From an uncultured Clostridium sp. (GTDB taxonomy: Bacteria > Bacillota > Clostridia > TANB77 > CAG-508): DNA of 64,000 nt. Shown here piece by piece: positions 1,907 through 60,837 of this stretch. The stretch spans positions 1,020 to 65,019 of the forward strand of contig CABPZP010000001.1 in NCBI GenBank assembly GCA_902461935.1, given 5' to 3'. The notes below the pieces were generated by a model. It ran no database searches, was not told the DNA's origin, and saw nothing but the letters and a program-made list of their open reading frames with translations. Position numbers and translations under genes: made by a program. The stretch's first letter is position 1, and every line of letters starts with the position of its first letter.

Positions 1907-2395
1907 TTAATTTGCTCTCATTGAAAATTTATTTGCTCCATCAAATAAGTTTTCAATATTTTCAGGCTTTTTTATTAGTTTTTTCATTGTAACTTTTGTT
2001 CCAAGTCCTAAAACAGACTCAACTTGCATTTCATCCATAAAACTTTCCATTATAGTAAATCCCATTCCGCTTCTTTCTAAATCTCCTTTTGATGTGTATA
2101 ATGGTTGTTTTGCAAGTTCTATATTTTCAATTCCTTTTCCTGTATCAGAAATTTCTATAGAAATTGTATTGGCAAAAATTCTTGCAACAATTTTTATTAT
2201 TCCTTCTGTATTTTCATAACCATGAATAATTGAATTTGTTACAGCCTCAGATACTGCTGTTTTTATGTCTGCAAGTTCCTCTATTGTAGGATCTAATTGT
2301 GCTGCAAATGCAGCAACAGTAACACGAGCAAAAGCCTCGTTGTTAGATTTACTTAAAAATTCCAATTTCATTTCATTTTCATATAAACTTTTCAT
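1907..2395 (-). CDS. spoIIAB: Anti-sigma F factor (serine kinase) SpoIIAB; start chosen at [13 protein letters not shown] (RBS gaaagg upstream). The longer ORF to 2458 runs into a repeat
   Basis: N-terminus matches SpoIIAB ([24 protein letters not shown]) and has a GHKL ATPase fold signature; the extension beyond 2395 is translated repeat sequence. Confidence 0.8.
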
Positions 2396-2430
2396 TTTAA
2401 ATTTCCTTTCTTTTTTGTTATTTTCTATAA

Positions 2431-2526
2431 GGGCATACAGAAGTGTCTGCCCCAACAATGTTTAAGATTATTTTTATTAATTTTTTCGGGTCGCCGGGGA
2501 CGTCGACCCCTACAACGTTTGACATT
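2431..2526 (+). repeat. Two tandem family-A REP-like elements (a degenerate copy at 2431-2466 and a canonical copy at 2487-2526) inside the spoIIAA-spoIIAB spacer
   Basis: cgggtcgccggggacgtcgacccCTACAACGTTTGACATT; near-palindrome plus conserved tail. Confidence 0.8.
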
Positions 2527-18547: not shown

Positions 18548-18774
18548 TAAATTATATTATATATTGTTTTGAAATACCGCGTAAGCGACCAAACGAGCAA
18601 ATATTTTTGCGAGTGCGATTTGGAGCAATCTTCCTTTTATATTATAGTAATTTTCTATTTTTATTGTAGTGGTCGACGCCTCTGTCGACCAGCATATAAA
18701 ATGCTCAATAGACCATTTTTAGTCCGAAGATTGCGACACCAAGGTATAAAAAACAATATATAATATAATTTTAA
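18548..18774. mobile_element. Family-B MITE-like element, full copy 2, with a reverse-oriented family-A hairpin (18664-18690) in its centre
   Basis: TIR ttaaattatattatatattgttttgaaatacc / ggtataaaaaacaatatataatataattttaa; central ttgtagtggtcgacgcctctgtcgacc. Confidence 0.75.
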
Positions 18775-23871: not shown

Positions 23872-26244
23872 TTATCCTCTTAATTCTGCATTTAATTTTG
23901 TTTTTGCTGCTTCTATTATTTTTTCTAATACTGCATTTATTTCTTCATCTGTTAGTGTTCTATCTTTTGCTCCAAATGATAGTGAATATGCTATACTTTT
24001 TTTGTTTTCTTCTATTCCTTTTCCTGTGTATACATCAAATACTTCTATTTCTGTTAATAGTTTTCCTGCAGCTCTTTTTAATACATCTGCCGCTTCTTTT
24101 GAAGTTATATCTTTATCTATAATTATTGCTAAGTCTTTTTTTATTGTTGGATATTTAGATATTTCTTTATATTTCATATTTCCAACTTTTTTTGCTAGTA
24201 ATTTATCTAAGTTTATTTCAAATGTAAATACATCTTCTTTTGTTACTTCTGGATGAAGTTTTCCCATAATTCCAACACTTTGACCATTTACATTTATTTC
24301 TGCTGTTTGACCTGGATGAAATTCTTTTGGCATATTTTTAGGCATTACAAAACTATATCTATTTTCATATCCTAAATAATCTAGCATTTCTTCAATTATT
24401 CCTTTTACAATATAAAAGTCTACGTTTTTCTTGTTATCTACTCCATAATAGAATTCTCCTGAAAGTATTGCACATAACTTATTTTCTTCTCCATATATAT
24501 CGCCTTTTTTGAAAAATCCTTTTCCTATTTCAAATATTGCAACATCTTTTTGATTTCTTGCATAATTGTATTCATATATTTTATATAAAGATGGAATCAT
24601 ACTATATCTTAAAGTATTTCTTTCTATTGTAATTGGATCTAGTAGTTTTAATTCTTCAAATTCATCTGTTGTAAATTTATGAACATCTGCATCATTTATT
24701 AATATATATGATAATGTTTCGTTTAATCCTAAATCTACCATTTTATTTCTTATGCTTCTTGTTGTTTTGTCGTAGCTTCCTGTCTTTATAGGTAATGTTG
24801 GTAATTTTCCTACTATATTGTCTACTCCATAAATTCTTCCAACTTCTTCTATTAAATCTTCTTTTATAGATATATCTATTCTTCTACTTGGTACATTTAC
24901 CATTGCTTTTTCATCATCTGCTTTATATTCAAATCCAAGTTTTCTAAATACGTCTAATATATCTTCTTTGGATATATTTGTTCCTAAAACTCTATTTATA
25001 TCTTCGTATTTTATTTCTACGTTTTTTTCTTGTTTCTCGATTTTATCGTATACAACTGTTCCTGTTATAATTGTTGCATCTGCATATTTTTCTAGTAATG
25101 CACATGCTCTTTCTGCTGCCATGTATGTTCTTTTATAATCCAATCCTTTTTCAAATCTGTTGCTTGCTTCACTTCTAACTATTTTATTTGATGTTTTTCT
25201 TACTAAAACAGAATCGAAAATTGCAGATTCTATTATTATGTTTTTAGTATCGTTTTCTACTTCTGTTGTAAGTCCACCCATTACTCCTGCTAAACCTATT
25301 GCTTCGTTTTCTTTTGAAATTACAATATCGTTTTTAGTAAGTATTCTTTCTATGTTGTCTAGAGTTGTTAATTTTTCTCCTTCTTCTGCCATTCTAACAA
25401 TTAGTTTTCCTTCTAAATTATCTGCATTATAGAAATGTAATGGTTGACCTAACTCTAACATAACATAGTTACTTATATCTACAACATTATTGATTGGTCT
25501 TATTCCACTTGCAATAAGTCTATTTTTTATAAATTCTGGACTTTCTTTTATGGTCACATTTTCTGCTCTTTTTGCTAAAAATAATTTACAATTATCTGTT
25601 TTTACTTCTACCTTAAAGCTATTGTTTATATCTTCTCCATTTTCTTTATGAGATAAGTCTACTTCTTTTTTTAGTGGTTTATCATAAATTGCTCCTACTT
25701 CATATGCCATTCCTAAAACACTTAGTAAATCTCCTCTATTAGCTGTTAAGTCAAAATCTATTACACTATCATCTAATCCTAAAAATTTAATTGGATCTTC
25801 TCCTGGCAGAGCATTTTCTGGTAATTCGCATATACCGTTTTTATCTGCTTCTGATAAAAATTTTTTATCTATTCCTATTTCATATAAAGCACACATCATT
25901 CCGTTTGATTTTTCACCACGAATAACTCCAGCTTTTATTTTTACTCCACCTGGTAATTCTGCTCCTGGTAAAGCAACTATTACTTTTATTCCTGCTCTTG
26001 CATTTGGAGCTCCACATACTATATCTAAAATTTCGTTTCCTACATCAACTTTACATAGGTGTAAATGGTCTGAATCTGGATGTTCTTTACATTCTTTTAT
26101 TTCTCCTATAACTAAGTTTGTTGCTTCTACTAAATTTTCTGCTGAATCATATTCACTTCCTGCTTTTGTCATTGCTTCGGCTAGTGTTTTTGTGTCTACA
26201 TCAACATCTACATATTCTTTTAAAAAGTTTGTACTTAATTTCAA
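23872..26244 (-). CDS. pheT: Phenylalanine--tRNA ligase beta subunit
   Basis: 790 aa with B3/4, tRNA-binding and FDX-ACB domains. Confidence 0.9.
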   Translation of the reverse strand: MKLSTNFLKEYVDVDVDTKTLAEAMTKAGSEYDSAENLVEATNLVIGEIKECKEHPDSDHLHLCKVDVGNEILDIVCGAPNARAGIKVIVALPGAELPGGVKIKAGVIRGEKSNGMMCALYEIGIDKKFLSEADKNGICELPENALPGEDPIKFLGLDDSVIDFDLTANRGDLLSVLGMAYEVGAIYDKPLKKEVDLSHKENGEDINNSFKVEVKTDNCKLFLAKRAENVTIKESPEFIKNRLIASGIRPINNVVDISNYVMLELGQPLHFYNADNLEGKLIVRMAEEGEKLTTLDNIERILTKNDIVISKENEAIGLAGVMGGLTTEVENDTKNIIIESAIFDSVLVRKTSNKIVRSEASNRFEKGLDYKRTYMAAERACALLEKYADATIITGTVVYDKIEKQEKNVEIKYEDINRVLGTNISKEDILDVFRKLGFEYKADDEKAMVNVPSRRIDISIKEDLIEEVGRIYGVDNIVGKLPTLPIKTGSYDKTTRSIRNKMVDLGLNETLSYILINDADVHKFTTDEFEELKLLDPITIERNTLRYSMIPSLYKIYEYNYARNQKDVAIFEIGKGFFKKGDIYGEENKLCAILSGEFYYGVDNKKNVDFYIVKGIIEEMLDYLGYENRYSFVMPKNMPKEFHPGQTAEINVNGQSVGIMGKLHPEVTKEDVFTFEINLDKLLAKKVGNMKYKEISKYPTIKKDLAIIIDKDITSKEAADVLKRAAGKLLTEIEVFDVYTGKGIEENKKSIAYSLSFGAKDRTLTDEEINAVLEKIIEAAKTKLNAELRG

Positions 26245-27294
26245 TTAGTCCACATCCTTTCTATCAAATTGACTTAAAAATCTTACATCGTTTGCATATA
26301 AATATCTCATATCTGGTATTCCATATTTAAACATTGCTAGTCTATCTATTCCTGTTCCAAATGCAAATCCTCCAAATTTTTCTGGGTCATAGCCATTTAT
26401 TTTTAATACATTTGGATGAACCATTCCACATCCTAATACTTCAATCCAACCTGTTTGTTTACATAGGTTACATCCTTTTCCTCCACATTTAAAGCAAGAT
26501 ACATCTACTTCATAAGATGGTTCTGTAAATGGGAAATAACTTGGTCTAAAACGTAATTCACTATTCTTTCCTATTACTTTTCTAACAAATACTTCTAGTG
26601 TTCCTTTTAAGTCTGCTAAAGAAACATTATTTTCTTTGTAATCTATTACTAATCCTTCTACTTGCCCAAATTGATGTGAATGTGTTGCATCGTCTTCTCT
26701 TCTATATGTTTTTCCAGCTGTTAGTTCTCTTATTGGTGTTTTTTCCGTATTTGCCATCATTGTTCTTGCTTGCACTGCAGAGGTTTGTGTTCTTAATAAA
26801 TATTCATCTGTAATGTAAAAACTATCTTGCATATCTCTTGCTGGATGTCCTTTTGGTAAGTTTAATCTTTCAAAGCAATATTCATCTGTTTCCAATTCTG
26901 GTCCACTGCATACATCATATCCCATTGATACAAATAAGTCCTCTATTTCTTCTATTATTCTGTTTACAGGATGTTTACTTCCTCTTTTTACTTTTGTTGC
27001 TGGTAAAGTTATATCTATTTTTTCTTGTTCTAATTTTTTATTTATTTCTGCTTTTTTAAATTCTTCTTCTCTTACATCTATTAAATTTTCTAATTCAGCT
27101 TTTACAACATTTACTAAGCTTCCTATAACAGGTCTTTCTTCTGCACTTAAATCTTTCATTCCTCTTAAAATGGCTGTTAATTCACCTTTTTTTCCTAAGT
27201 ATTTAACTCTAGCATTATTTAACTCTGTAATATCTTGTGCCTTACTAATTTCTGCTAATGCTGTTTCTTTCATTTTTGCAATTTGCTCTTTCAT
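26245..27294 (-). CDS. pheS: Phenylalanine--tRNA ligase alpha subunit
   Basis: 349 aa class II aaRS core; directly abuts pheT. Confidence 0.9.
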   Translation of the reverse strand: MKEQIAKMKETALAEISKAQDITELNNARVKYLGKKGELTAILRGMKDLSAEERPVIGSLVNVVKAELENLIDVREEEFKKAEINKKLEQEKIDITLPATKVKRGSKHPVNRIIEEIEDLFVSMGYDVCSGPELETDEYCFERLNLPKGHPARDMQDSFYITDEYLLRTQTSAVQARTMMANTEKTPIRELTAGKTYRREDDATHSHQFGQVEGLVIDYKENNVSLADLKGTLEVFVRKVIGKNSELRFRPSYFPFTEPSYEVDVSCFKCGGKGCNLCKQTGWIEVLGCGMVHPNVLKINGYDPEKFGGFAFGTGIDRLAMFKYGIPDMRYLYANDVRFLSQFDRKDVD

Positions 27295-27299
27295 AGTTT

Positions 27300-27600
27300 C
27301 CTCCTTTAAATTTTATTTATATAAATTTATTTTTATATAAAAATAAAAGAATCATCCCTTGCATAGGACGATTCTTTTACCCGTGTTACCACCTAAATTC
27401 ATTGAACTATTTTTAATTCAACCTCATTTGCTATATCGTTGCAACCGTTTTTCCCTACTATTATTTCAAGAAAAAACCTCAAAAGTGAAATTTCTATAAA
27501 CCTTATTTTAGTAAACTTTCAGCCACGATTTACTTTCTCTTTAAAAATAATTATTGTTTATATACTTTGCTTTTTCATCGGCTTTATTCAATTTTATTTT
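27300..27600 (-). promoter_or_regulatory. T-box riboswitch leader of pheST
   Basis: On the minus strand: AGAGA-type stem I, T-box sequence AATTTAGGTGGTAACACGGG (plus strand 27381-27400), then a terminator hairpin with U-run (27340-27380) just upstream of the pheS RBS. Confidence 0.6.
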
Positions 27601-32338: not shown

Positions 32339-32660
32339 GGCGGACAGAGGCGTCCGCCCCTACATTTTATTTTATGAACAATTCAAATTTGTCTAAAGAC
32401 AAAATAATAATTAAGATTAAATTTCGCGAAGCAAGTGGGGACCTTTCCGGCATTCTTCAAAATTCTTTTGAATTTTGTTAGAAGGGCGTGAATGGGGAGC
32501 TTCGATGAAATTTTAGATTAATTCATTATTTTGGCTTATATCACATTTTTCATATTGCGGGTCGTCGGGACGCCGACCCCTACAACGTCTGGCATCATTT
32601 TTAATGTTGTTTTATTATATTCGGGCGGACAGAGGCGTCCGCCCCTACATTGTCTGACAC
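32339..32660 (+). repeat. Three family-A elements (32339-32368, 32568-32600, 32623-32660) downstream of polC
   Basis: ggcggacagaggcgtccgccCCTACATTTT; gcgggtcgtcgggacgccgacccCTACAACGTCTGGCAT; gggcggacagaggcgtccgccCCTACATTGTCTGACAC. Confidence 0.8.
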
Positions 32661-32685
32661 AATTTTCAAATACCATTTTATTAAT

Positions 32686-32911
32686 ATAATAACAAATATA
32701 TTTGTTTTGAAATGCCGCGTAAGCGACCAAACGAGCAGATTTCCTGTGAGTACGATTTGGAGCAATCTTCATTTTATTAATTTATATGTTTATAATGTAA
32801 ATATATAAATTAATTTTACAAAAATGTAATTATGTGCAAATGGTCAATAGGCCATTTTTTAATTCGAAGATTGCGACACCAAGGCATAAAAAACAATATA
32901 TTTGTCATTAT
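32686..32911. mobile_element. Family-B MITE-like element, full copy 3
   Basis: TIR ataataacaaatatatttgttttgaaatgcc / ggcataaaaaacaatatatttgtcattat (the atgcc/ggcat variant is mirrored in both arms). Confidence 0.75.
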
Positions 32912-32945: not shown

Positions 32946-35900
32946 TTAAAATTCAAAGAAAGACATTTGATTACTTTGTGTCATTCCTTTTAAACATCCT
33001 GCATTTTTTAACATTTCTATTACAGATTTTCCTACTCCTGAACGTTGTTGCAAATCATCTATACACATAAATTTACCATCTTTTTTTGCTTTTTCTATCC
33101 CCTCTGCTGCAACTGTTCCAAGTCCTGGTATACTATTTAATGGTGGACGTATTCCGTCTTCTTCCATTACAAATTTGGTACTATGTGATTTATATAAATC
33201 CATTGGCAAGAAGTTTATTCCTCTTTCATACATTTCTAATACCAATTCTAATATTGCATACATGTTTTTTTCTTTTACTGTTGCTCCATTTCCTAGAAGG
33301 TCTATTTCTTTCATTTTGTTTTTTACTCTTTCTTCTCCATGGCACATTATATCACTATCAAACTCATCTGCTCTAATTGTAAAATATGCTGTGTAATACG
33401 CTTTTGGCTCGTGTACCTTAAACCATGCAATTCTGAAGGCATTTGTTACATATGCTGCAGCATGTGCCTTTGGGAACATATATTTTATTTTTTTACATGA
33501 ATCTATATACCAATCTGGTACATTATTATCTTTCATCATTTTCTCATATTCTGGCCACTTTGGCTCTTTTCCTTTTGCAACTTTTCCTTTACGTACAGCT
33601 TCCATTATTTTAAATGATGGTTGTGGTTCTAATCCTTTTTTTATTAGATATATCATAATATCGTCTCTACAACATATTGCTTCATCCAGTTTTATTGTTC
33701 CTGCTTCTATTAAGCTTTGAGCATTGTTAAGCCACACATCTGTACCATGAGAAAGTCCAGAAATACGAATAAGTTCATCAAATGTTGTTGGTTTTGTATC
33801 TACTAACATTCCGCCTTACAAATTTAGTTCCAAATTCTGGTATTCCAAAGCTTCCTACTTCTGAATGTATTTGATCCGGTGTAACTCCTAAAGCCTTTGT
33901 TGAACTAAATATAGACATTGTTTCTTTATCATCTAATGGTACTTTTGTAGGGTCTTTTCCTGTTATATCAAATAGCATTCTTATCATTGTTGGATCGTCG
34001 TGTCCTAGTATATCTAGTTTCAATAAGTTTTGATCTATTGAGTGATAGTCAAAGTGTGTTGTTATAATATCTGAATTTGGATCATCTGCAGGATGTTGCA
34101 CTGGTGTAAATTCATATATTTCTCTACCTTTTGGAACAACTATAATTCCTCCTGGGTGCTGTCCTGTTGTTCTTTTAATTCCAACACAACCTTTTGAAAC
34201 TCTATTTATTTCAGCACTACTTACAGGTATTTGTCTTTCTTCATAATATTTTTTTACATAACCATATGCAGTTTTCTCTGCTACTGTACCAACGGTTCCA
34301 GCTTTAAAAGTTGTTCCTTTTCCAAATATTACTTCTGTATATTTATGTGCTTTTGCTTGATATTCTCCAGAGAAGTTTAAGTCTATATCTGGCTCTTTAT
34401 CTCCATTAAATCCAAGGAATGTTTCAAAGGGTATATCCATTCCATCTTTATCTAACCTATGTCCACATTTTGGGCAATTTTTATCTGGTAAGTCGAATCC
34501 ATTTTTACATCCATAATCTGTAAAATCCGAATATTTACAATTTGGACATCTATAATGTGCTGGCAGAGAATTAACTTCTGTTATACCTGTCATATTTGCA
34601 ACAAATGATGAACCAACAGAACCTCTTGAACCAACTATATATCCATCTTCGTTTGACTTCCAAACTAATTTCTGTGCAATTATATACATAACGGAGAAAC
34701 CATTTTTTATAATTGAGTTTAATTCTTTATCTAGTCTTTCTTGCACTATTCCTGGTAATTGTTCTCCATATAATTCGTGAGCTTTACTATATGCTATATT
34801 TTTTATTTCATCTTCACAACCTGGTATGTGTGGAGGACATTTTTCTGGTGATATTGGGCTTATTCTTTCACACATATCACTTATTTTATTTGTATTTTTT
34901 ACAACAACCTCATATGCTTTTTCTGGTCCTAAATATTGAAATTCTTCAAGCATTTCATTTGTTGTTCTTAAGTATAAAGGTGCTTGTAAATCTGCATCTG
35001 CATATCCTTGCCCTGCCTCCAGAATTCTTCTATATATTTCATCTTGAGGGTCCATAAAGTGAACATCACAAGTTGCAACTACTAGTTTACCTAGTTTTTC
35101 TCCTAATTCTACTATTTTTCTGTTTATATCTCTTAATGCTTCATCGTCTGCAACTACACCATTTCTAACTAAAAAAGCATTGTTTCCTATTGGTTGAATT
35201 TCTAAGTAGTCATAGTCTCTTGCTATTTCTTCTATTTCTTCATCTGATTTTCCTTTTTCTATTGCTTGGTACAATTCTCCTGCTTCACAAGCACTTCCTA
35301 GTATAAGACCTTCTGAATATTTTTTATACAAACTTTTTAATATACGTGGTTTTCTATAAAAATAGTGTAAATGAGATAGTGAAACTAATTTATATAAATT
35401 TTTTAGTCCTACATAATTTTTTGCAAGTATTATAGCATGGTATGATGGTAATTTTTTATATGATTGTTTTTCAGCTTCCTTATCTGGTCCTACAATGTCT
35501 ATATCATCTATTGTTTTTGCACCTTTCTCTTTTAACATATCTATCATTACATTAAATACTTTAACTGTTGTATCAACATCATCTAAAGCTCTATGTGCTA
35601 CTTCAACTTTTATTCCTAAGTTTTCTGCAATTATTCCTAATTTATACTTTTTATAATCTGGAAATAGCATTTTTGCAAGTTTAAGTGTATCTAAATATGT
35701 ATTATTTAACTCATATCCTAATATCTTTGCATTGTGTTTTAAAAATCCAATATCGAAATCTGCATTATGTGCAACAAGCACAGAATCTCCAAAAAATTCT
35801 AAAACTTTTGGTAAAACTTGTTCTATTGTTTCTGCTTCTTTTACCATATCATCTGTAATATTTGTAACTTCTGTAACCTTTTCTGGTATATGCTTTTCCG

Positions 35901-37359
35901 GATTTACAAAACACGAAAATGTATCTATTACTTCTCCACATTTAATTTTCATTATTCCTATTTCTGTTATTTTTTCTGTTCTATATGAAAGTCCTGTTGT
36001 TTCTAAGTCAAATACACAATATGTTGTATCTATATCTTGTCCTTTAGAGAATGAAATTGTTGGAACTCTATCTGGTACTAAATATGCTTCAACTCCATAT
36101 ATAATTTTCATATCTTTGTTGTCTCTACCTAAAAGTTTATGTGCTTCTGGAAAGGCTTGCACAACTCCATGGTCTGTAATTGCAATAGATTTCATTCCCC
36201 ATTTCATAGCTCTTTTTATTAAATCTGTTGCAGATGTCATTGCATCCATTTGGCTCATTTGAGTATGCATATGTAGCTCTACTCTTTTTTCTTCCGCTAA
36301 ATCCATTCTTTCTTGTTTTTTTCTTCCTTGTGTTTCAATTATTGTATTCGCTATAACTCCGAGTTCTTTTGCAAATGGATCAAATTGTGCTGTTCCTTCT
36401 ATTTTTAATCCTTTTGCACTTTGTATTTTCTTTAATACTTCTGCTCCTCTTTCTCCCGGTACGAAAGCTTTACAAGTTATTGTACTTGTTCCATCATATA
36501 CATCAAACATAACAAGCCATTTACCACTTTTTAACTCTCTTGAATCTGTGTTTATTACTTCTCCTTCTAAACTTAGTTTTCCAGTATCTACTCCAATATC
36601 TTCTACTTTTACAAGTTCTTCTCTTATATTCATATTTCTTCCCAATATTAATGGTGTATTCTCTTCTGGCATTGATGGTGGTGGCGGAGCTGGAACATAA
36701 TCATTTTGAGAAACTTGTTTTGTTTCTTTTTCCTTTGATTTATTTTCATTTGGTTTATTATTTTGTTTTTTATGTATTTTATTTTCTTCATTTTTTTCAA
36801 TATCAATTGAAGTAGCAACTTTTTCTAATGCCATAATTTCTAAATGTTTTTTTCGTTGTTCTAAAATTTTCAAAGTTTCTTCAGAAATTCTTTCTATATA
36901 CGTTACTTTGTATTTTTTCATGTATAAACTTTCTATTAGTTTTTCTAACACTACATTTAATCCTCTAGCATTTAAAAAATCTGCACCTTTCATAGTTAAA
37001 TAAACCTTTAGTTTATTTTCTTCTAACTCTAATTTTGCATTAGCAAGTAATTGTCTTGCAATTGGATATTTTCTCGCAAGCAATGCCATTATATTTTTCC
37101 ACTCGTCTTCTATACTTGGAATTTTTGCATTTTCTCCATAATGCATATTTATCCAAGTGTGTTCAATTCTAAATCTTTCACTAACAAAGGCCTCAAATAT
37201 AGCAATAGCTTTAAGTTCAATAAATTCTTCTGATTCTAAATCTAATACTAATGTATTTTTTCTTTTGTATAACTTCATATTTAATATTTTTGCATTTTCT
37301 AAATTATCTTCAAATTTAAAATCTTTAAAAGTTTCTTTCATTGCTTTTATTGTTGCCAT
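32946..37359 (-). CDS. polC: DNA polymerase III PolC (Gram-positive type), split by an apparent single-base insertion near 33808-33816 into ORFs 33778..37359 and 32946..33809
   Basis: OB, exonuclease (DEDDh), PHP and polymerase core recognisable; the two ORFs join seamlessly as ..[33 protein letters not shown].. if one A is removed from cggAatg. Confidence 0.85.
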
Positions 37360-37490: not shown

Positions 37491-39671
37491 TTATGTATTT
37501 TCCCAGCTTAATATAGGATATCCATTATTTATTTTTGAATTTACAGTAAAATTATCCCATTTTAATTGTTTTATTTCTGTTTCACTTTTTACTGTTGTGC
37601 TTACTTTATCATTATCTATTCCACCTTTTATACAATCTTTTAATTGCCAACATGCTGTTACAGGAAACGTTCTTCCAGTAAATTTCATTCCGACAATTCC
37701 ACCAGTTTTTCCATTATAATTTCCAGTATTTTTATTATTAATGTCGCCTATATTATAGCAATATTTTATACTTCCACTATATACATAACCAATTATTCCA
37801 CCTATTGCTCTGTAATTTGAATCAACATTTCCAGTATTATATGAATATGAAATTGCAACATTTTCTCCTGTACAGCCAATTATCCCTCCCGTTCTAGAAT
37901 TATAAGAAGCATCGCATCCTTTTGAACATACATATGCAGTATTTACTGCTTGTTCTATTTTCCCACCCAATCTTAGGTAACCAGTTATTCCTCCTACATA
38001 ATTATTACCAATTATTTCTCCTGCATTTTTAACTTTTTTAAAACTAACAATATTAGTACCATCACCACTACAACCCGATATTCCTCCTACTTTTACTACA
38101 TTATTATTTATATTCGAATAATTTTCACATCCAATTATATTTCCTTTTCGTATCCATCCAACTATACCACCAATTCCATCATAACTTCCTGTTATTGTAC
38201 CATAATTTTTGCAATTTTCTATATTTCCACCATATTCTCCCATTCTACCTACAATTCCTCCTACTGAACTACTATTAGCACTTTGTGGTTCATCCGAATG
38301 ATGACCTATTGATTTTACATTCGCCTTGTTTACACAATTTTTTATATTTCCATAATTAACTCTTCCTGCAATTCCTCCTACATCATATGTTCCTATTATA
38401 TTGCCTTCTACAGCTAAATTTGCAACTTCTGCATATTCATTTTCTGTTCCATATACATATGAAAATAATCCTTGGTCGGAATTAGCTTGATTTATATTTA
38501 TACCTTCTATTTTATGCTCTTCCCCATCATATGTTCCTGAGAAATATTTTTGATAGCTTCCTATTGGTATCCAAGTAATATTATTTAAATTTATATCTGC
38601 TTTTTGTTTTATGATACAATTTTCAAATTTATTTCCGTTATTTACCTTATTTCTAAAATCCAACAACTGTGACTTATTCCATATTTCATAGCTATCAGAA
38701 TATGTTATATTTCCTATTGTTGTACTTCCTTTAGATTCTATATTTGTTACTTCTTTCCATTTTGCATATACTTCTATATTACTACTTACTTTTATAATTT
38801 TATCTCCAGTACCTTCAGGATTATTATACCAGCCTTCAATTATATATCCTCCTCTTGAAAACTTTGTTGTATCTAATGTTATTTCTTGATCTTTTAGTAC
38901 TATTTCTTCTAGTTTTTCTTCTGTTCCATCATTTTTATTATATACTATTTTATATTCGTTCTCTTCAGGATCTGCTTCAGCTTCATCTATATAAGTTACA
39001 TTTTTATTCTCATCAATTTTAAAATAATAACCTTTATATTTTATTATAAAAACTTTTTCTTCACTTTTTTCTTTAACTTCTAAATTTTCATCATTTTTTC
39101 TTAATGTATTCCATACATTTTCGTAATTAAACTTATTTCCTAAATTTTCTCCTGAATTTGCATTTGTTTCTTCTTCCATTATTGCTAATTGAATTTCCTC
39201 TTTTGCATTAGAGATATTCGTTTTTTGCATTGCTTGTTGTGCCTTTTTTATTATTCCATTTTCTCCCATTACCATATTTAGTGTTACACCGGCTAAAATT
39301 AATAGTACGATTATTGTTATTATTAAAGCTATTAAGGTGATCCCTAGATTATATTCTGCCATTTGTAAGGGTCGGCGTCCTCGACGACCCGATTTTCCAT
39401 CTTTTTTCATTTGTGGATAGATAGAATTATATTTTGAAGCATTATTTAACATTATTTTATCGGTATGTCTACTTTTTGCATTCGGGTCGTCGGGGACGCC
39501 GACCCCTACAGCGTTTAATTTTATTTGTTCAAATATTGCAATATTGTTTTTATTTATTATTTTTGCATCATAATTTGAGACATTTTCATAAATGTCCCTT
39601 TCACATATTTCATTATTTTTATTTAAAACACCGGTGTGTGTGTATATATACAGTTTCAACGCTTTCAGCAA
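37491..39671 (-). CDS. GLUG-motif repeat surface protein with prepilin-like hydrophobic N-terminal segment; start uncertain (39671, 39410 or 39362)
   Basis: Eight or more GGI(V/A)G..G.I.N(C/S)..N.G.(V/I) GLUG-type repeats; N-terminus ..GRRGRRPLQMAEYNLG-ITLIALIITIIVLLILAGV; the region upstream of the TM contains two family-A repeats in frame. Confidence 0.6.
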   Translation of the reverse strand: MLKALKLYIYTHTGVLNKNNEICERDIYENVSNYDAKIINKNNIAIFEQIKLNAVGVGVPDDPNAKSRHTDKIMLNNASKYNSIYPQMKKDGKSGRRGRRPLQMAEYNLGITLIALIITIIVLLILAGVTLNMVMGENGIIKKAQQAMQKTNISNAKEEIQLAIMEEETNANSGENLGNKFNYENVWNTLRKNDENLEVKEKSEEKVFIIKYKGYYFKIDENKNVTYIDEAEADPEENEYKIVYNKNDGTEEKLEEIVLKDQEITLDTTKFSRGGYIIEGWYNNPEGTGDKIIKVSSNIEVYAKWKEVTNIESKGSTTIGNITYSDSYEIWNKSQLLDFRNKVNNGNKFENCIIKQKADINLNNITWIPIGSYQKYFSGTYDGEEHKIEGININQANSDQGLFSYVYGTENEYAEVANLAVEGNIIGTYDVGGIAGRVNYGNIKNCVNKANVKSIGHHSDEPQSANSSSVGGIVGRMGEYGGNIENCKNYGTITGSYDGIGGIVGWIRKGNIIGCENYSNINNNVVKVGGISGCSGDGTNIVSFKKVKNAGEIIGNNYVGGITGYLRLGGKIEQAVNTAYVCSKGCDASYNSRTGGIIGCTGENVAISYSYNTGNVDSNYRAIGGIIGYVYSGSIKYCYNIGDINNKNTGNYNGKTGGIVGMKFTGRTFPVTACWQLKDCIKGGIDNDKVSTTVKSETEIKQLKWDNFTVNSKINNGYPILSWENT
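39355..39519. repeat. Inverted pair of family-A elements (reverse copy 39355-39391, forward copy 39483-39519) about 91 bp apart inside the 5' coding region of the GLUG gene
   Basis: ttctgccatttgtaa-gggtcggcgtcctcgacgaccc ... gggtcgtcggggacgccgaccc-CTACAGCGTTTAAT; tails point outward. Confidence 0.75.
39634..39650. repeat. Dinucleotide tract (GT)5(AT)3-4 in the 5' end of the GLUG gene
   Basis: ggtgtgtgtgtatatatac. Confidence 0.8.
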
Positions 39672-39768
39672 TTTTCATATTTTTTATCTCCTTCTTTTGT
39701 ATTTTGGGTACAGAACACTGTACCCACACATTTAATTTTTACACTTTTATTCTATGTTAAAAAAATGT

Positions 39769-43980: not shown

Positions 43981-44096
43981 CAAATATATTTGTTTTGAAA
44001 TACCGCGTAAGCGACCAAACGAGCAAATATTATTCCAAATTTAACAATTTCATTATTTCGGGTCGTCGGGACGCCGGCCCCTACAACGTCTGACAT
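43981..44096 (+). repeat. Left-half family-B copy (43981-44031) followed by a family-A element (44059-44096) between the peptide-binding protein gene and spoVS
   Basis: caaatatatttgttttgaaataccgcgtaagcgaccaaacgagcaaatatt ... cgggtcgtcgggacgccggccCCTACAACGTCTGACAT. Confidence 0.75.
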
Positions 44097-58058: not shown

Positions 58059-60062
58059 TTATTCTTCATCTGTTGCATTTACTGTAATTCCAGTATTTAG
58101 AGAAACTACAGGGCGTATACCTGAATAGACATTCATATAGTTTCCATAACTACTATGTCTATAACAACTCACAAATCCATTATACACCACACGAATTAAT
58201 TCATTCCCATTATATCCAACAGAGGGTGAAGCCAACCAATATCCACTTGTTGCATCACATTCTAATGTATATGGATAATATAATTTGTTTTTATATCCCT
58301 GTTTACTATTCATTGTGATAGAATTTGATGTCGGTTTTGATATTATTCCAATATAATATCCATTAATATCTGTATTATCACAATATAATTTTCCATCTAC
58401 ATTTTCATATAAATTGTTCCAACTAGCCATCCACATTTCTACTGTGGCTCCTCCTATTGCATATTCCGCTTTATTTTTACTATCTTTATAACAACTCCAA
58501 TTATTTGCATTTAGTAATGTTGATACACATTTTGAATTACTTTTTCCACTTTGCAATGCATATCCTGTTGCTTTAAATCTAGTTAATACTTCTGAGTTTA
58601 CTTCTTGGAATGCTGGTGCTGGATCCCAATATACTTTATACCCTGATTTTTTCATTCCTGTTTCTTTACTTATTCTATCTGTTTCTACTGTGTTTATATA
58701 ATCTCCTGTCATTAAAAATATATGTTCTCCATCTGAATAGAATATTTTCCAGTCATTTTGTCCGTTTTGTGATGTGTAATCTGTTACTTTTAGTCCATAG
58801 TATTTTGATGGCTCGTTTGCTACCATTTGTGCCGTTATTCCTGTATATGTTTTATATATTTTAATATTTTGTGTTGAACTTTGTTTTGTATTTCCAGCTT
58901 TATCGTATGCTATTGCATATATATTGTATGTTCCACTCTCTAGTTTTATTGGATTTGTTTCATGTTTTTGGTATTTATTCTCATCTTTTTTACTTACATA
59001 GTATTCTATTTTTTCTATTTCACTTTCTTCATCTTCTGCATTTACTGTTATTTTTAATCCTTCTTCTGTGTTTTCTGTTTTTTCTATTTCGCATTTTGTA
59101 GGTGCATTTGTATCTATATTTTTTATTTCTATTGTTTTGTTTGTTGTAGTTCCTTGATTATCTGTTACTTCATATTTGAATGTTGTATTTTGTGTTATAT
59201 TTTCTTTTGTTATTACATATTCTGTTTTTCCGCCTACGTCTATTTCTTCTTCGTTTTCTGGTTTTATTTTTGCTAGTCCATTATTGCTTTTTATTGTTAT
59301 ATTTACTTTTACTGGTCCTTTTGTCCAGCCTGTTGGTTCTATATTTGTTAGTATTCGTATTCCTGTTGATTTTTCTCCTATATGTGCTACATATTTTTCG
59401 TCTATTGTAAATTCGTATCCCTTGTAAATACCTTCTATTGTTTCACTTTCTTCTGCTGAAGTTATTTCTATATCATCTGTGTTTTGCAGTTCTTGTATTT
59501 TTTGTTTTAGATTTTTTCTTATTGTTTCTATATTAAATTCTAATCCACTTGTTGCTGAATCTGTTTGCATTTCTAATACACTCATTCTTAATTCTTCTTC
59601 GTATTGTGCTACTTCTGTTTTATTCTTTGCGCTGCTTGCTTTGGCAAACATTCCATTTTCTCCTATTACCATATTTAGGGTTATACCGGCAAGAATTAGT
59701 AGGACAATTATGGTAATTACCAATGCCACTAATGTGATTGCAGTATTTGAGGTTGGAAATTGGAGGTTAGATGTTGGAATGTTTGACGTTAATTTATTCA
59801 CTAATTTATGTTTTTCTTTCGGGTCGTCGGGGACGCCGACCCCTACAATGTTTGGTTTATGTTTTTCAAATGTTATAATATTATTTTTATTTTGTTTAAG
59901 GCGGACAGAGGCGTCCGCCCCTACAACGTTTGGATTGTGTTTGTCAAATTTAATATTATTTCTACTTTGATTTCGTTCTAGGCAGATATGAGCGTCCGCC
60001 CCTACAGTATTGAATATTTCTATATCACATTCATTGTTTGTTTGTTCATTTATTTTTTTCAT
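58059..60062 (-). CDS. Large surface protein: N-terminal three tandem 25-aa repeats (translated family-A elements), prepilin-like TM, Ig-like domains; paralog of 37491..39671
   Basis: Strong RBS aggagg-N6-ATG at 60062; ..NTAITLVALVITIIVLLILAGITLNMVIGENG.. then about 100 aa similar to the GLUG protein, then Ig-like (YAIAYDKAGN) domains. Confidence 0.65.
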   Translation of the reverse strand: MKKINEQTNNECDIEIFNTVGADAHICLERNQSRNNIKFDKHNPNVVGADASVRLKQNKNNIITFEKHKPNIVGVGVPDDPKEKHKLVNKLTSNIPTSNLQFPTSNTAITLVALVITIIVLLILAGITLNMVIGENGMFAKASSAKNKTEVAQYEEELRMSVLEMQTDSATSGLEFNIETIRKNLKQKIQELQNTDDIEITSAEESETIEGIYKGYEFTIDEKYVAHIGEKSTGIRILTNIEPTGWTKGPVKVNITIKSNNGLAKIKPENEEEIDVGGKTEYVITKENITQNTTFKYEVTDNQGTTTNKTIEIKNIDTNAPTKCEIEKTENTEEGLKITVNAEDEESEIEKIEYYVSKKDENKYQKHETNPIKLESGTYNIYAIAYDKAGNTKQSSTQNIKIYKTYTGITAQMVANEPSKYYGLKVTDYTSQNGQNDWKIFYSDGEHIFLMTGDYINTVETDRISKETGMKKSGYKVYWDPAPAFQEVNSEVLTRFKATGYALQSGKSNSKCVSTLLNANNWSCYKDSKNKAEYAIGGATVEMWMASWNNLYENVDGKLYCDNTDINGYYIGIISKPTSNSITMNSKQGYKNKLYYPYTLECDATSGYWLASPSVGYNGNELIRVVYNGFVSCYRHSSYGNYMNVYSGIRPVVSLNTGITVNATDEE
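59820..60012 (+). repeat. Three tandem family-A-containing units of about 75 bp (59820-59857, 59899-59934, 59972-60012) lying inside the coding sequence of 58059..60062
   Basis: cgggtcgtcggggacgccgacccCTACAATGTTTGG; ggcggacagaggcgtccgccCCTACAACGTTTGG; ggcagatatgagcgtccgccCCTACAGTATTGAAT. Confidence 0.8.
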
Positions 60063-60169
60063 TTGTTTCCTCCTATATTTTATTTGAATATATAGTATAT
60101 CAAAATAGGATATTTGTAAATACTTTATTTGTAAATTTATTTTATTATAAAATTTTTTTTGGTGATAAT

Positions 60170-60376
60170 ATGATAACTTTTAATATTGAAAATCTACTAA
60201 AGAAAAATGAAAAAACCAAATATTGGCTATGCCAACAAATGGGTATTACAAATAGAAATCTAAATAGAATTATAGAAGGTAAAACAACCTCTATTTCTTT
60301 TAAATATTTAGAAGATTTGTGCAAATTCTTAAATTGTTCTATTTCTGAATTAATTAATTTAGATTTAACAAAATAA
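60170..60376 (+). CDS. XRE-family helix-turn-helix transcriptional regulator (Cro/CI-like)
   Basis: 68 aa; YWLCQQMGITNRNLNRIIEGKTTSISFKYLEDLCKFLNCSISELI; RBS ggtga; divergent from 58059..60062. Confidence 0.65.
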   Translation: MITFNIENLLKKNEKTKYWLCQQMGITNRNLNRIIEGKTTSISFKYLEDLCKFLNCSISELINLDLTK

Positions 60377-60381
60377 AATAA

Positions 60382-60437
60382 TGATAGGTAAAAACAACTA
60401 ATTAATATAATTTAATTTTTGCTTTTACCTATCATTT
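60382..60437 (+). terminator. Hairpin after the XRE gene (14-bp perfect stem aatgataggtaaaa/ttttacctatcatt)
   Basis: Perfect inverted repeat with a 28-nt loop; weak T-run. Confidence 0.35.
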
Positions 60438-60837
60438 ATTATTTACTTTCATAAAATATATAATATAAAGTTAGTTAATATCCACCTTTATATTATAAAA
60501 TTTTCTATATATTCTATTAAAAATAGTGGTATATTTAATATTTTTTCATTATATACTTTTAATGGAAAATCGTTTTTAGTAATATTGTAAACCTTTATAA
60601 TAGTTATTAAGTAAAATCACATTTTTACAAGCATTTTAAAAGTTTTCATCACACTTTTGCAAGGTTTTAGACAAACTTTGTCACATTTTTGCATTTTTTA
60701 ATTTATTGCTTCTCCATTTACATATAATGTGTAGCCATTAAAATCTATATTGCTACAACTTATATCTTCATCGTTTAATGTTGTTACAAATGTGTTTCAT
60801 GTTAGTGTTAATTTTGATGTACTATCTATATTTAATT

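Follow-up and report, generated by a model that had tools for sequence, protein, structure and literature searches.

GTAG-headed REP-type palindromes in the probably translated leader of a surface-protein gene from an uncultured gut Clostridium

We analyzed a 64,000-nucleotide stretch of DNA from an uncultured Clostridium sp. (contig CABPZP010000001.1; hereafter the window), with a focus on the open reading frame (ORF) 58059..60062 on the minus strand and on the repetitive extragenic palindromic (REP)-type repeats at its 5' end. The window is chromosomal Firmicute DNA with 27% GC, encoding PolC, RecA, MutS, PheST, sporulation sigma factors, and SpoIID, and it matches a human-gut metagenome scaffold in ENA (ERZ28568900 BENG15-1 scaffold_45); the closest species-level genomes are metagenome-assembled genomes (MAGs) labeled "uncultured Clostridia bacterium," with an identity of 49% or less. 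The ORF encodes 667 amino acids, consisting of a leader (residues 1-108), a hydrophobic N-terminal helix (residues 109-133, ITLVALVITIIVLLILAGITLNMVI, encoded by 59664..59738 on the minus strand), which forms the family's conserved anchor, and, further on, a long helix, beta domains of the Ig-like type, and a DUF6273-like C-terminal part. AlphaFold2 assigns residues 1-108 a predicted local distance difference test (pLDDT) score of 23-30 and almost no secondary structure, followed by a first helix (108-133), a second, long one (138-172), and the beta domains, in a model of low confidence as a whole (mean pLDDT 55). A search for homologues retrieved 1215 sequences, and a profile search of the PDB returned Ig/FN3-like modules only.

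The ATG of the ORF (60062-60060) is preceded at a distance of six nucleotides by the Shine-Dalgarno sequence AGGAGG (60069..60074, minus strand), as a preliminary description of this DNA had stated. A promoter-like element, TTTACA-17-TACTAT (60092..60120, minus strand), lies about 30 nt 5' of the ATG; it is a consensus match only and not enriched over shuffled sequence, and it is kept in five orthologous strains and in the relative L118, which has no REP. Three hairpin units follow within the first 80 codons, all on the minus strand. Unit 1 (59981..60005) has a GTAG head and a decayed hairpin (GGGCGGACGCTCATATCTGCC, with the stem GGCGGAC..ATCTGCC), and is read as VGADAHIC; unit 2 (59900..59924) has a GTAG head and the hairpin GGCGGAC-GCCTCT-GTCCGCC, and is read as VGADASVR; unit 3 (59821..59846) has a GTAG head and a hairpin of a second stem subfamily, GGGTCGGCG-TCCC-CGACGACCC, and is read as VGVGVPDDP. 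The in-frame translation given in the preliminary description (..FNTVGADAHICLERNQSRNNIKFDKHNPNVVGADASVRLKQNKNNIITFEKHKPNIVGVGVPDDPKEKHK..) was exact, with the reservation that the first of its three hairpins has a decayed stem. Its 75-bp units of 25 amino acids have to be corrected: The GTAG heads lie at 60005, 59924, and 59846, giving periods of 81 and 78 bp (27 and 26 codons). The three units do stand in series, but the term "tandem repeat" is only loosely apt because they are too dissimilar outside the hairpins, where the alignment shows only a loose likeness, and Tandem Repeats Finder, run on 59500-60300, did not call units of 78-81 bp.

Rather than reaching directly to the hydrophobic segment, as had been described, the array is separated from it by an AT-rich spacer (59739..59820, minus strand) encoding the 27 residues KEKHKLVNKLTSNIPTSNLQFPTSNTA. 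Within this spacer, a 5' motif of the REP type stands alone, with no REP attached (TCAAACATT, 59778-59786), and a stretch of 14 bp is nearly duplicated (59745-59771). The 3' end of the spacer, TCAAATACT, repeats the TTCAATACT seen 5' of unit 1; these two sequences form the flanks of the array. The leader RNA is predicted to fold into stable hairpins (-60.9 kcal/mol, z = -2.15). A long-range pairing between the Shine-Dalgarno sequence and CCUCC appeared in this fold as a 5-bp helix of one minimum free energy structure only, and was given no weight. The hairpins were also considered, and rejected, as terminators: No U-run lies 3' of them on either strand, and terminator calling in 59600-60450 returned nothing besides an unrelated site at 60221-60237.

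Each of the three units is a copy of a REP-type repeat with a GTAG head and a GC-rich imperfect hairpin. In the window, the 14-mer GTAGGGGCGGACGC has nine matches with up to three mismatches, against 0.14 expected, and a scan for GC-rich hairpins yielded 17 copies (11 well formed and 6 degenerate), 15 of them with GTAG on the minus strand, where nearly all genes of the window are encoded. The intergenic DNA (approximately 7.5 kb) holds 11 of the 17, two gene leaders (approximately 0.66 kb) together hold five, and one lies in a mechanical 5' extension of the ORF 1907..2458, with none in the remaining 55 kb or so of coding DNA; the density in the leaders is about five times that of the intergenic DNA. 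Stems are 8-9 bp long with one mismatch and enclose loops of 3-6 nt, and more copies were found in related contigs. An unbiased count of the tetramers preceding GC hairpins in the window and closely related contigs gave 29 for GTAG and 14 for the offset TAGG, with at most six for any other, and a scan that allowed seven head variants found the GTAG head in 53 of 65 candidate hairpins. Across 24 aligned copies, GTA is invariant, the fourth base is G in 23, and four of the six consensus stem pairs stay paired through changes on both sides across the stem subfamilies, which comprise GGGTCGGCG/CGACGACCC, GGGCGGAC/GTCCGCCC, GGGCACGG/CCGTGCCC, GGGCGACC/GGTCGCC, and GGGTTGGCG/CGACAACCC. The repeat is thus a short GC-rich imperfect palindrome with a GT(A/G)G foot, present in many, predominantly extragenic copies. 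It is accompanied by a loosely conserved 5' motif, ..TCAAACGTT, seen in many leader and intergenic copies as ..(A)TGTCAAAC(G/A)TT; TCARACRWT as an independent target site was not significantly enriched (9 occurrences vs. 5.9 expected). Intergenic copies lack a ribosome-binding site. The ATG at which they had been said to begin is present at position -12 in 5 of about 12 and missing from the rest, and the 35-codon ORF reported at 2421-2528 does exist, with no Shine-Dalgarno site. Among 30 ORFs of the window scanned against Pfam, none matched Y1_Tnp, the domain of REP-associated tyrosine transposases (RAYTs). A protein search with the REP-encoded 74-residue segment returned four short fragments from few word-index candidates, and is unusable as a survey of other protein families.

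A second repeat family of approximately 95 nt, with the core TCTGCTCGTTTGGTCGCTTACGCGG, occurs in four copies (0 expected) on the minus strand at 2565-2589, 18577-18601, 32715-32739, and 44003-44027, each located 5' of a minus-strand gene and no more than about 100 nt from a GTAG-headed REP. The family has no match in Rfam, a relaxed search of 32560-32860 (REPs with the adjacent 95-nt repeat) gave a chance match only, and its 25-nt core has no exact copy in 169 other loci; a small RNA and a leader element are possible identities.

Translation of 58059..60062 most likely starts at ATG 60062, and the REPs probably lie inside the translated frame, as judged from comparison of the related leaders. 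The strongest argument for the upstream start is the homology of the start module. In five syntenic orthologues, defined by their common downstream SH3/dockerin gene, the promoter, Shine-Dalgarno sequence, ATG, and first 18 codons are approximately 100% identical, and the promoter/Shine-Dalgarno/ATG module of the window is homologous to that of L118, whose ATG is unambiguously the start because its leader is REP-free and 18 codons long. Similarly, the REP-free leader of L108 (17 codons) has its Shine-Dalgarno sequence, ATG, and first 14 or so codons in common with the REP-bearing L107, L120, and L111, which carry an additional 189, 249, and 96 nt of REP-containing sequence before the same helix, all multiples of three.

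The reading frame itself points the same way. The 108 codons of the window leader contain no stop in frame, compared with 11 and 15 in the other frames, a state reached in only 0.03% of shuffled sequences (probability 3e-4), and the same frame pattern was observed in eight further leader architectures. To keep the survey independent of gene calls, we located all DNA sites coding for the helix and inspected the sequence upstream of each; this census includes ten distinct REP-bearing leaders in which the frame of a Shine-Dalgarno-preceded ATG agrees with that of the helix and stays open as far as the helix, with an open length of 60-198 codons in frame and at most 26 in the other frames. In ORFs of more than 300 codons of the loci examined, every REP between start and stop lies in such a leader; the two copies found in longer stop-free spans (L099 and L102) are both located 5' of the ribosome-binding site. 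In the GGGTCGGCG subfamily, all 11 leader copies are 22 nt long, whereas 5 of 10 intergenic copies have a length of 21 nt, which would shift the frame (one-sided Fisher p approximately 0.012, with relatedness ignored). The preliminary description had noted that an internal start before the helix would turn the repeats into 5' untranslated region (UTR) sequence; neither a Shine-Dalgarno site nor a conserved start codon was found downstream of the last REP and before the helix. With the most probable start on one side and the helix on the other, the repeats would, as had been proposed, very probably be translated.

The homologues align well from the helix AITL[IV]AL[IV]ITIIVLLILAG onward, and their upstream parts are wildly different, with zero to four REP-derived segments and various N-terminal modules. 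Forward REPs in these leaders read VGADASVR or VGVGVPDDP, and reverse ones GRRGRRPLQ or GRPKDAQP; one reading frame is used per orientation, of the two out of three that are stop-free in each. This single frame may result from tandem duplication of triplet-length units, or from insertions that always took place at one site, behind a TCAAAY..T motif. The copy-number variation that had been predicted is seen among the syntenic orthologues, which hold one, two, or three units: The window and L090 have three forward units, L081 two, and L084 a single one, L082 and L083 have one forward and one reverse unit, and L085 two forward and one reverse. Unit 1 belongs to an 81-bp segment, present or absent depending on the strain, and is an exact 81-bp indel bounded by TGTAGGGGCGGACGC; all REP indels between the orthologues preserve the frame. 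The helix-coding segment of L082 and L085 is of the type found in a paralogous gene described below, 37491..39671, which points to exchange between paralogues. Leaders are mosaic, being common to paralogues with different ectodomains, and REP number differs among members of single 90%-identity clusters.

Further insertions and rearrangements were observed in these leaders. The homologues P0178 and P0180 of that paralogue have "double-foot" chimeric hairpins, read as VGVGEDADPLQ, which are the expected product of a deletion between a forward and a reverse REP of the same leader. The loop of a leader REP may be interrupted by a 51-nt insert (between GTAGGGGTCGGCGT and CCCGACGACCC) that is in frame as KGITDLYSHVRSNNSEM; this is found at L089 (2935-3010), L095, and L096, and in P0018, P0058, P0147, P0183, P0192, and P0226. 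Another palindromic element, GATCCATCTTGCATGGTGAAG ... CTTCACCATCGTGGATC, is in frame as TTDPSCMVKDIFFLHVFERKMLHHRGS in P0097, and in L089 (2800-2910) its frame is joined to neither start codon nor membrane helix. Directly 5' of KEKHK, L086 (1-60) and L092 have unrelated GC-richer sequence (..AAGCCTAAGGGTGGGGGCGAAAATCAAGTCCACTTATTGGGGCATAGCTAA) in place of the REP; the contig of L086 ends at this replacement. A reverse-transcriptase gene (RVT_1) lies upstream of the leader of L089, and it may be that a mobile element targets the REP. Hairpin variants are also found in frame in leaders of other Clostridia MAGs (NVGVGLDRP, NVGGRLGKP, NVGVRLDES, and NVGRRLDEP; L015, L016, L033, and L064), and their use of the same frame suggests that the phenomenon recurs across species.

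The paralogue mentioned above, a GLUG protein encoded by 37491..39671 on the minus strand, carries two in-frame copies, in agreement with the preliminary description (NAVGVGVPDDP and, in reverse, SGRRGRRP). The forward REP (39484..39509, minus strand) is read as VGVGVPDDP; the REP in opposite orientation (39365..39390, plus strand) has the head GTAA, is read on the gene strand as GRRGRRPLQ, and sits eight codons before the helix, which starts at 39341. The ATG of this gene with AAGGAG upstream (39676..39678, minus strand) is shifted by one base from the frame of the long ORF. The leader of the gene contains an (AC)5 tract (39634..39643, minus strand); with one additional AC unit, this ATG and the long ORF would share a frame, and P0125, a 92%-identical orthologue, has a longer tract. 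Many paralogue leaders likewise have (CA)n or (GA)n tracts, which vary in length, between the Shine-Dalgarno-preceded ATG and the REPs, with approximately 12 in frame and 13 out of frame as counted from the listed N-termini, and tract length and on/off state differ within 90%-identity clusters (P0115/P0239; P0166/P0240/P0243). These frame states make sense only if the leaders are translated from the far-upstream ATG. Tracts of different lengths, among them (CA)16 and (GA)n, are found in paralogue leaders that include those of L089 (2670-2705) and L114. The paralogues thus have the features of genes that are phase variable through simple-sequence tracts, and 39634-39678 of the GLUG gene is a probable site of phase variation; 58059..60062 itself has no such tract.

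Several observations weigh against the view that these are REPs translated from ATG 60062. In more distant relatives the leader is short (5-25 residues), basic, and ends in ..KG-ITLIAL, so that 108 residues are atypical. Some alleles combine a broken leader with an intact downstream ORF: L087 and L097, from two samples, have a common 11-nt deletion, L094 has an additional G in its GTAGGGG run, L088 has a chimeric hairpin, and the leader of L089 is out of frame twice; such alleles could be switched off or dead, or they could point to an unseen internal start. The leader copies may also descend largely from few ancestral insertions, in which case the leader counts are not independent events. No RAYT was detected by tblastn in approximately 1.4 Mb of DNA, a weak test with an IS200 transposase as the query. 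It has also been cautioned that REPs within the N-terminal part of genes are mostly annotation artefacts (Di Nocera et al. 2013, PMC3733652). Part of this evidence favors an explanation in which the REPs are 5'-UTR elements, translation begins at a weak or non-canonical start near the helix, the gene call with its long open frame 5' of that start is over-extended, and the hairpins act on mRNA stability or translation. The short leaders of distant relatives, the frameshifted leaders with intact downstream ORFs, that published caution, and the stability of the predicted RNA hairpins (z = -2.15) all agree with it, as do the REPs located upstream of the Shine-Dalgarno sequence in the family members L098, L099, and L100. 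Yet the interval from the last REP to the helix offers neither a Shine-Dalgarno site nor a conserved start, the sole in-frame GTG (LVNK) is absent from the orthologue L084, and the start module is homologous to the unambiguous start of REP-free genes. Also against it are the asymmetry in stop codons (0 vs. 11 and 15, a pattern found in nine architectures), the frame-keeping 22 nt of all leader copies of the GGGTCGGCG subfamily when half of the intergenic ones have 21 nt, and the restriction of unit indels to multiples of three, and we regard this explanation as improbable.

More weight falls to the idea that the leader is a dedicated variation or expression switch, in which REP arrays give rise to recombination, inversion, and indels that change the frame and, in concert with dinucleotide tracts, toggle members of a large surface-protein family and swap their N-terminal modules, an unlikely but not negligible alternative. 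It fits the variable (CA)n/(GA)n tracts with their nearly even division into on and off states (approximately 12:13), the GLUG gene of the window being off by one AC unit, the mosaic leaders common to paralogues with different ectodomains, the double-foot chimeras of P0178 and P0180, the frame-breaking hairpin chimera of L088, and the roughly fivefold REP density of leaders. For 58059..60062, however, there is no dinucleotide tract and all REP indels between orthologues keep the frame, and the enrichment can follow from tolerance and local duplication. In a more specific form, considered somewhat less likely still, the leader would be a hypervariable control region in which REPs are inserted site-specifically 3' of TCAAAY..T and, together with the tracts, drive switching and module swapping; a fixed-frame insertion at this motif before the helix would explain the use of one frame per orientation. 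That single frame (VG.. forward and GRRGRRPLQ in reverse, although two are stop-free) is also what one would expect of a functional peptide cassette of about 26 amino acids with intergenic relics, the second of the two alternatives offered in the preliminary description, and five intergenic copies do open with an in-frame ATG. We reject this alternative as very improbable: The GTAG head and the stem pairing are conserved, the latter through compensatory substitutions, rather than the peptide, and three or more stem subfamilies give unrelated peptides. The element is read in both orientations, REP-free homologues exist, the encoded region has a pLDDT below 30, and most copies are intergenic, with no Shine-Dalgarno sequence and with frame-shifting loop variants; the single frame is also explained by tandem duplication of triplet length or by a fixed insertion site.

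The other of those alternatives is the one we favor: A non-coding palindrome has, we think it likely, been captured by a tolerant N-terminal tail and is translated as part of it. REP copies would first have inserted at the gene's 5' end and then multiplied there by unequal recombination. Transcription would begin approximately 25 nt 5' of ATG 60062, judging from the promoter-like match, and ribosomes would initiate at this ATG and read through all three hairpins, to give a disordered N-terminal tail of 108 residues, presumably on the cytoplasmic side of the membrane helix. Such a tail would be under almost no constraint on sequence or length beyond an open frame, and because an open frame would be its only requirement, it could tolerate REPs in the way intergenic DNA does; the encoded peptide itself would be neutral, we infer. 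The REPs would in turn provide homology for recombination, by which units are gained or lost, sequence between inverted copies is deleted, and paralogues exchange leaders.

The gene had also been described as pilin-like, which did not hold up beyond a positional resemblance. The protein of 58059..60062 has no match to N_methyl (PF07963/TIGR02532), and the relative P0085 reaches 15.3 bits where 21.2 would be required; with the GspG and PilA models, E values were 0.008-0.03, far from passing the respective cut-offs. The sequence around the putative processing site is ..SNTA-ITLVAL, with alanine at both -1 and +5, whereas paralogues and relatives have glycine at -1 and, again, always alanine at +5 in place of the glutamate of type IV pilins and pseudopilins. 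The resemblance to class III signal peptides lies in the relatives' short basic leader ending in G, followed by ITLIALV, approximately 20 hydrophobic residues, and an amphipathic helix; this matches the layout G-FTLIE.. position by position, with ITLIAL for FTLIEL, and with weak N_methyl and GspG matches. No prepilin leader is known to come near a length of 108 residues. No pilin was among the matches of the PDB profile search, and no prepilin peptidase, pilus, or type II secretion genes were found among the window ORFs scanned. Membership in the type IV pilin or prepilin-type domain families was rejected, given sub-threshold hidden Markov model scores and a site without G(-1) and E(+5). The tail may stay on the protein or may be cut at (G/A)-ITL by a prepilin-type peptidase.

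Rickettsia palindromic elements are the classic translated palindromic elements, and are reportedly inserted in frame in protein-coding genes. As in these, a selfish palindrome in the leaders described here lies inside ORFs with the frame unbroken, adding an extra peptide to a tolerant part of the protein. Those of Rickettsia are 100-150 bp long, of unrelated sequence, and occur singly in many unrelated housekeeping genes, unlike the approximately 25-nt hairpins in 78-81-bp units that form tandem or inverted arrays confined to the N-terminal tail. With hairpins of this size in a Clostridia genome encoding PolC and sporulation sigma factors, we rejected membership in that group, and the likeness is functional only. 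In opa genes of Neisseria, the signal-peptide region has CTCTT coding repeats whose changing number switches the frame on or off. The (CA)n/(GA)n tracts of the paralogues, including 39634-39643 of the window, are similarly placed between start codon and mature protein; 58059..60062 differs in having no such tract and in units of 78-81 bp that keep the frame.

The closest likeness in sequence is to the GTAG-tagged REPs of Proteobacteria and other phyla, which are mobilised by RAYT/TnpA-REP, a Y1 HUH transposase whose gene usually has REPs on its flanks (Nunvar 2010, PMC2817692; Di Nocera et al. 2013; Quentin 2018, PMC6006769). Both are imperfect GC-rich palindromes of 20-26 nt with a 5' GTAG foot, with many, mostly extragenic copies and several stem subfamilies per genome, and both include inverted pairs, "double-foot" derivatives, and occasional in-frame intragenic copies, more often N-terminal. 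Double-foot REPs have been attributed to deletion between inverted dimers, and frame-preserving insertions have been found within tnpA-REP genes (Quentin 2018). The surveys of GTAG-tagged REPs differ from our case in the host, here an uncultured Clostridia genome of 27% GC; neither Clostridia nor Firmicutes are mentioned by Nunvar (2010) or Di Nocera et al. (2013). Two further differences are the additional conserved 5' motif TCAAACGTT and the arrangement of the intragenic copies as arrays in the leaders of one family rather than scattered. In-frame REPs as such are already known, having been listed with an N-terminal excess and mostly suspected to be misannotations (Di Nocera et al. 2013), and the case described here is unusually systematic. 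New are the host lineage, the gathering of arrays in the leaders of a single family of surface proteins, the comparative evidence for the upstream start, the strain-level variation in copy number and orientation, and the co-occurrence with dinucleotide tracts.

If translated as the sequences suggest, these leaders would be a well-supported case of translated REPs where N-terminal in-frame copies have mostly been dismissed as annotation errors, and a natural example of selfish palindromic DNA that is probably translated outside Rickettsia and the Proteobacteria. Variation of the leaders could underlie variation of gut surface proteins and serve as a marker for strain typing; should the leader indeed be a control region, this would constitute a REP-based surface-variation system in gut Clostridia. 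It should be noted that gene callers give varied N-termini for these proteins (MPDDP.., MVIGENG.., or M?LYTHTHT..), which confuses protein clustering.

Two features of the window lie apart from the REPs. The gene for the PolC-type DNA polymerase III alpha subunit (32946-37359, minus strand) is split into the overlapping ORFs 33778..37359 and 32946..33809, reflecting either a frameshift or an assembly error. The only match of the window to Rfam at the gathering threshold is a T-box leader (RF00230, 100 bits) at 27361-27587 on the minus strand, located upstream of pheS and pheT (26245..27294 and 23872..26244).

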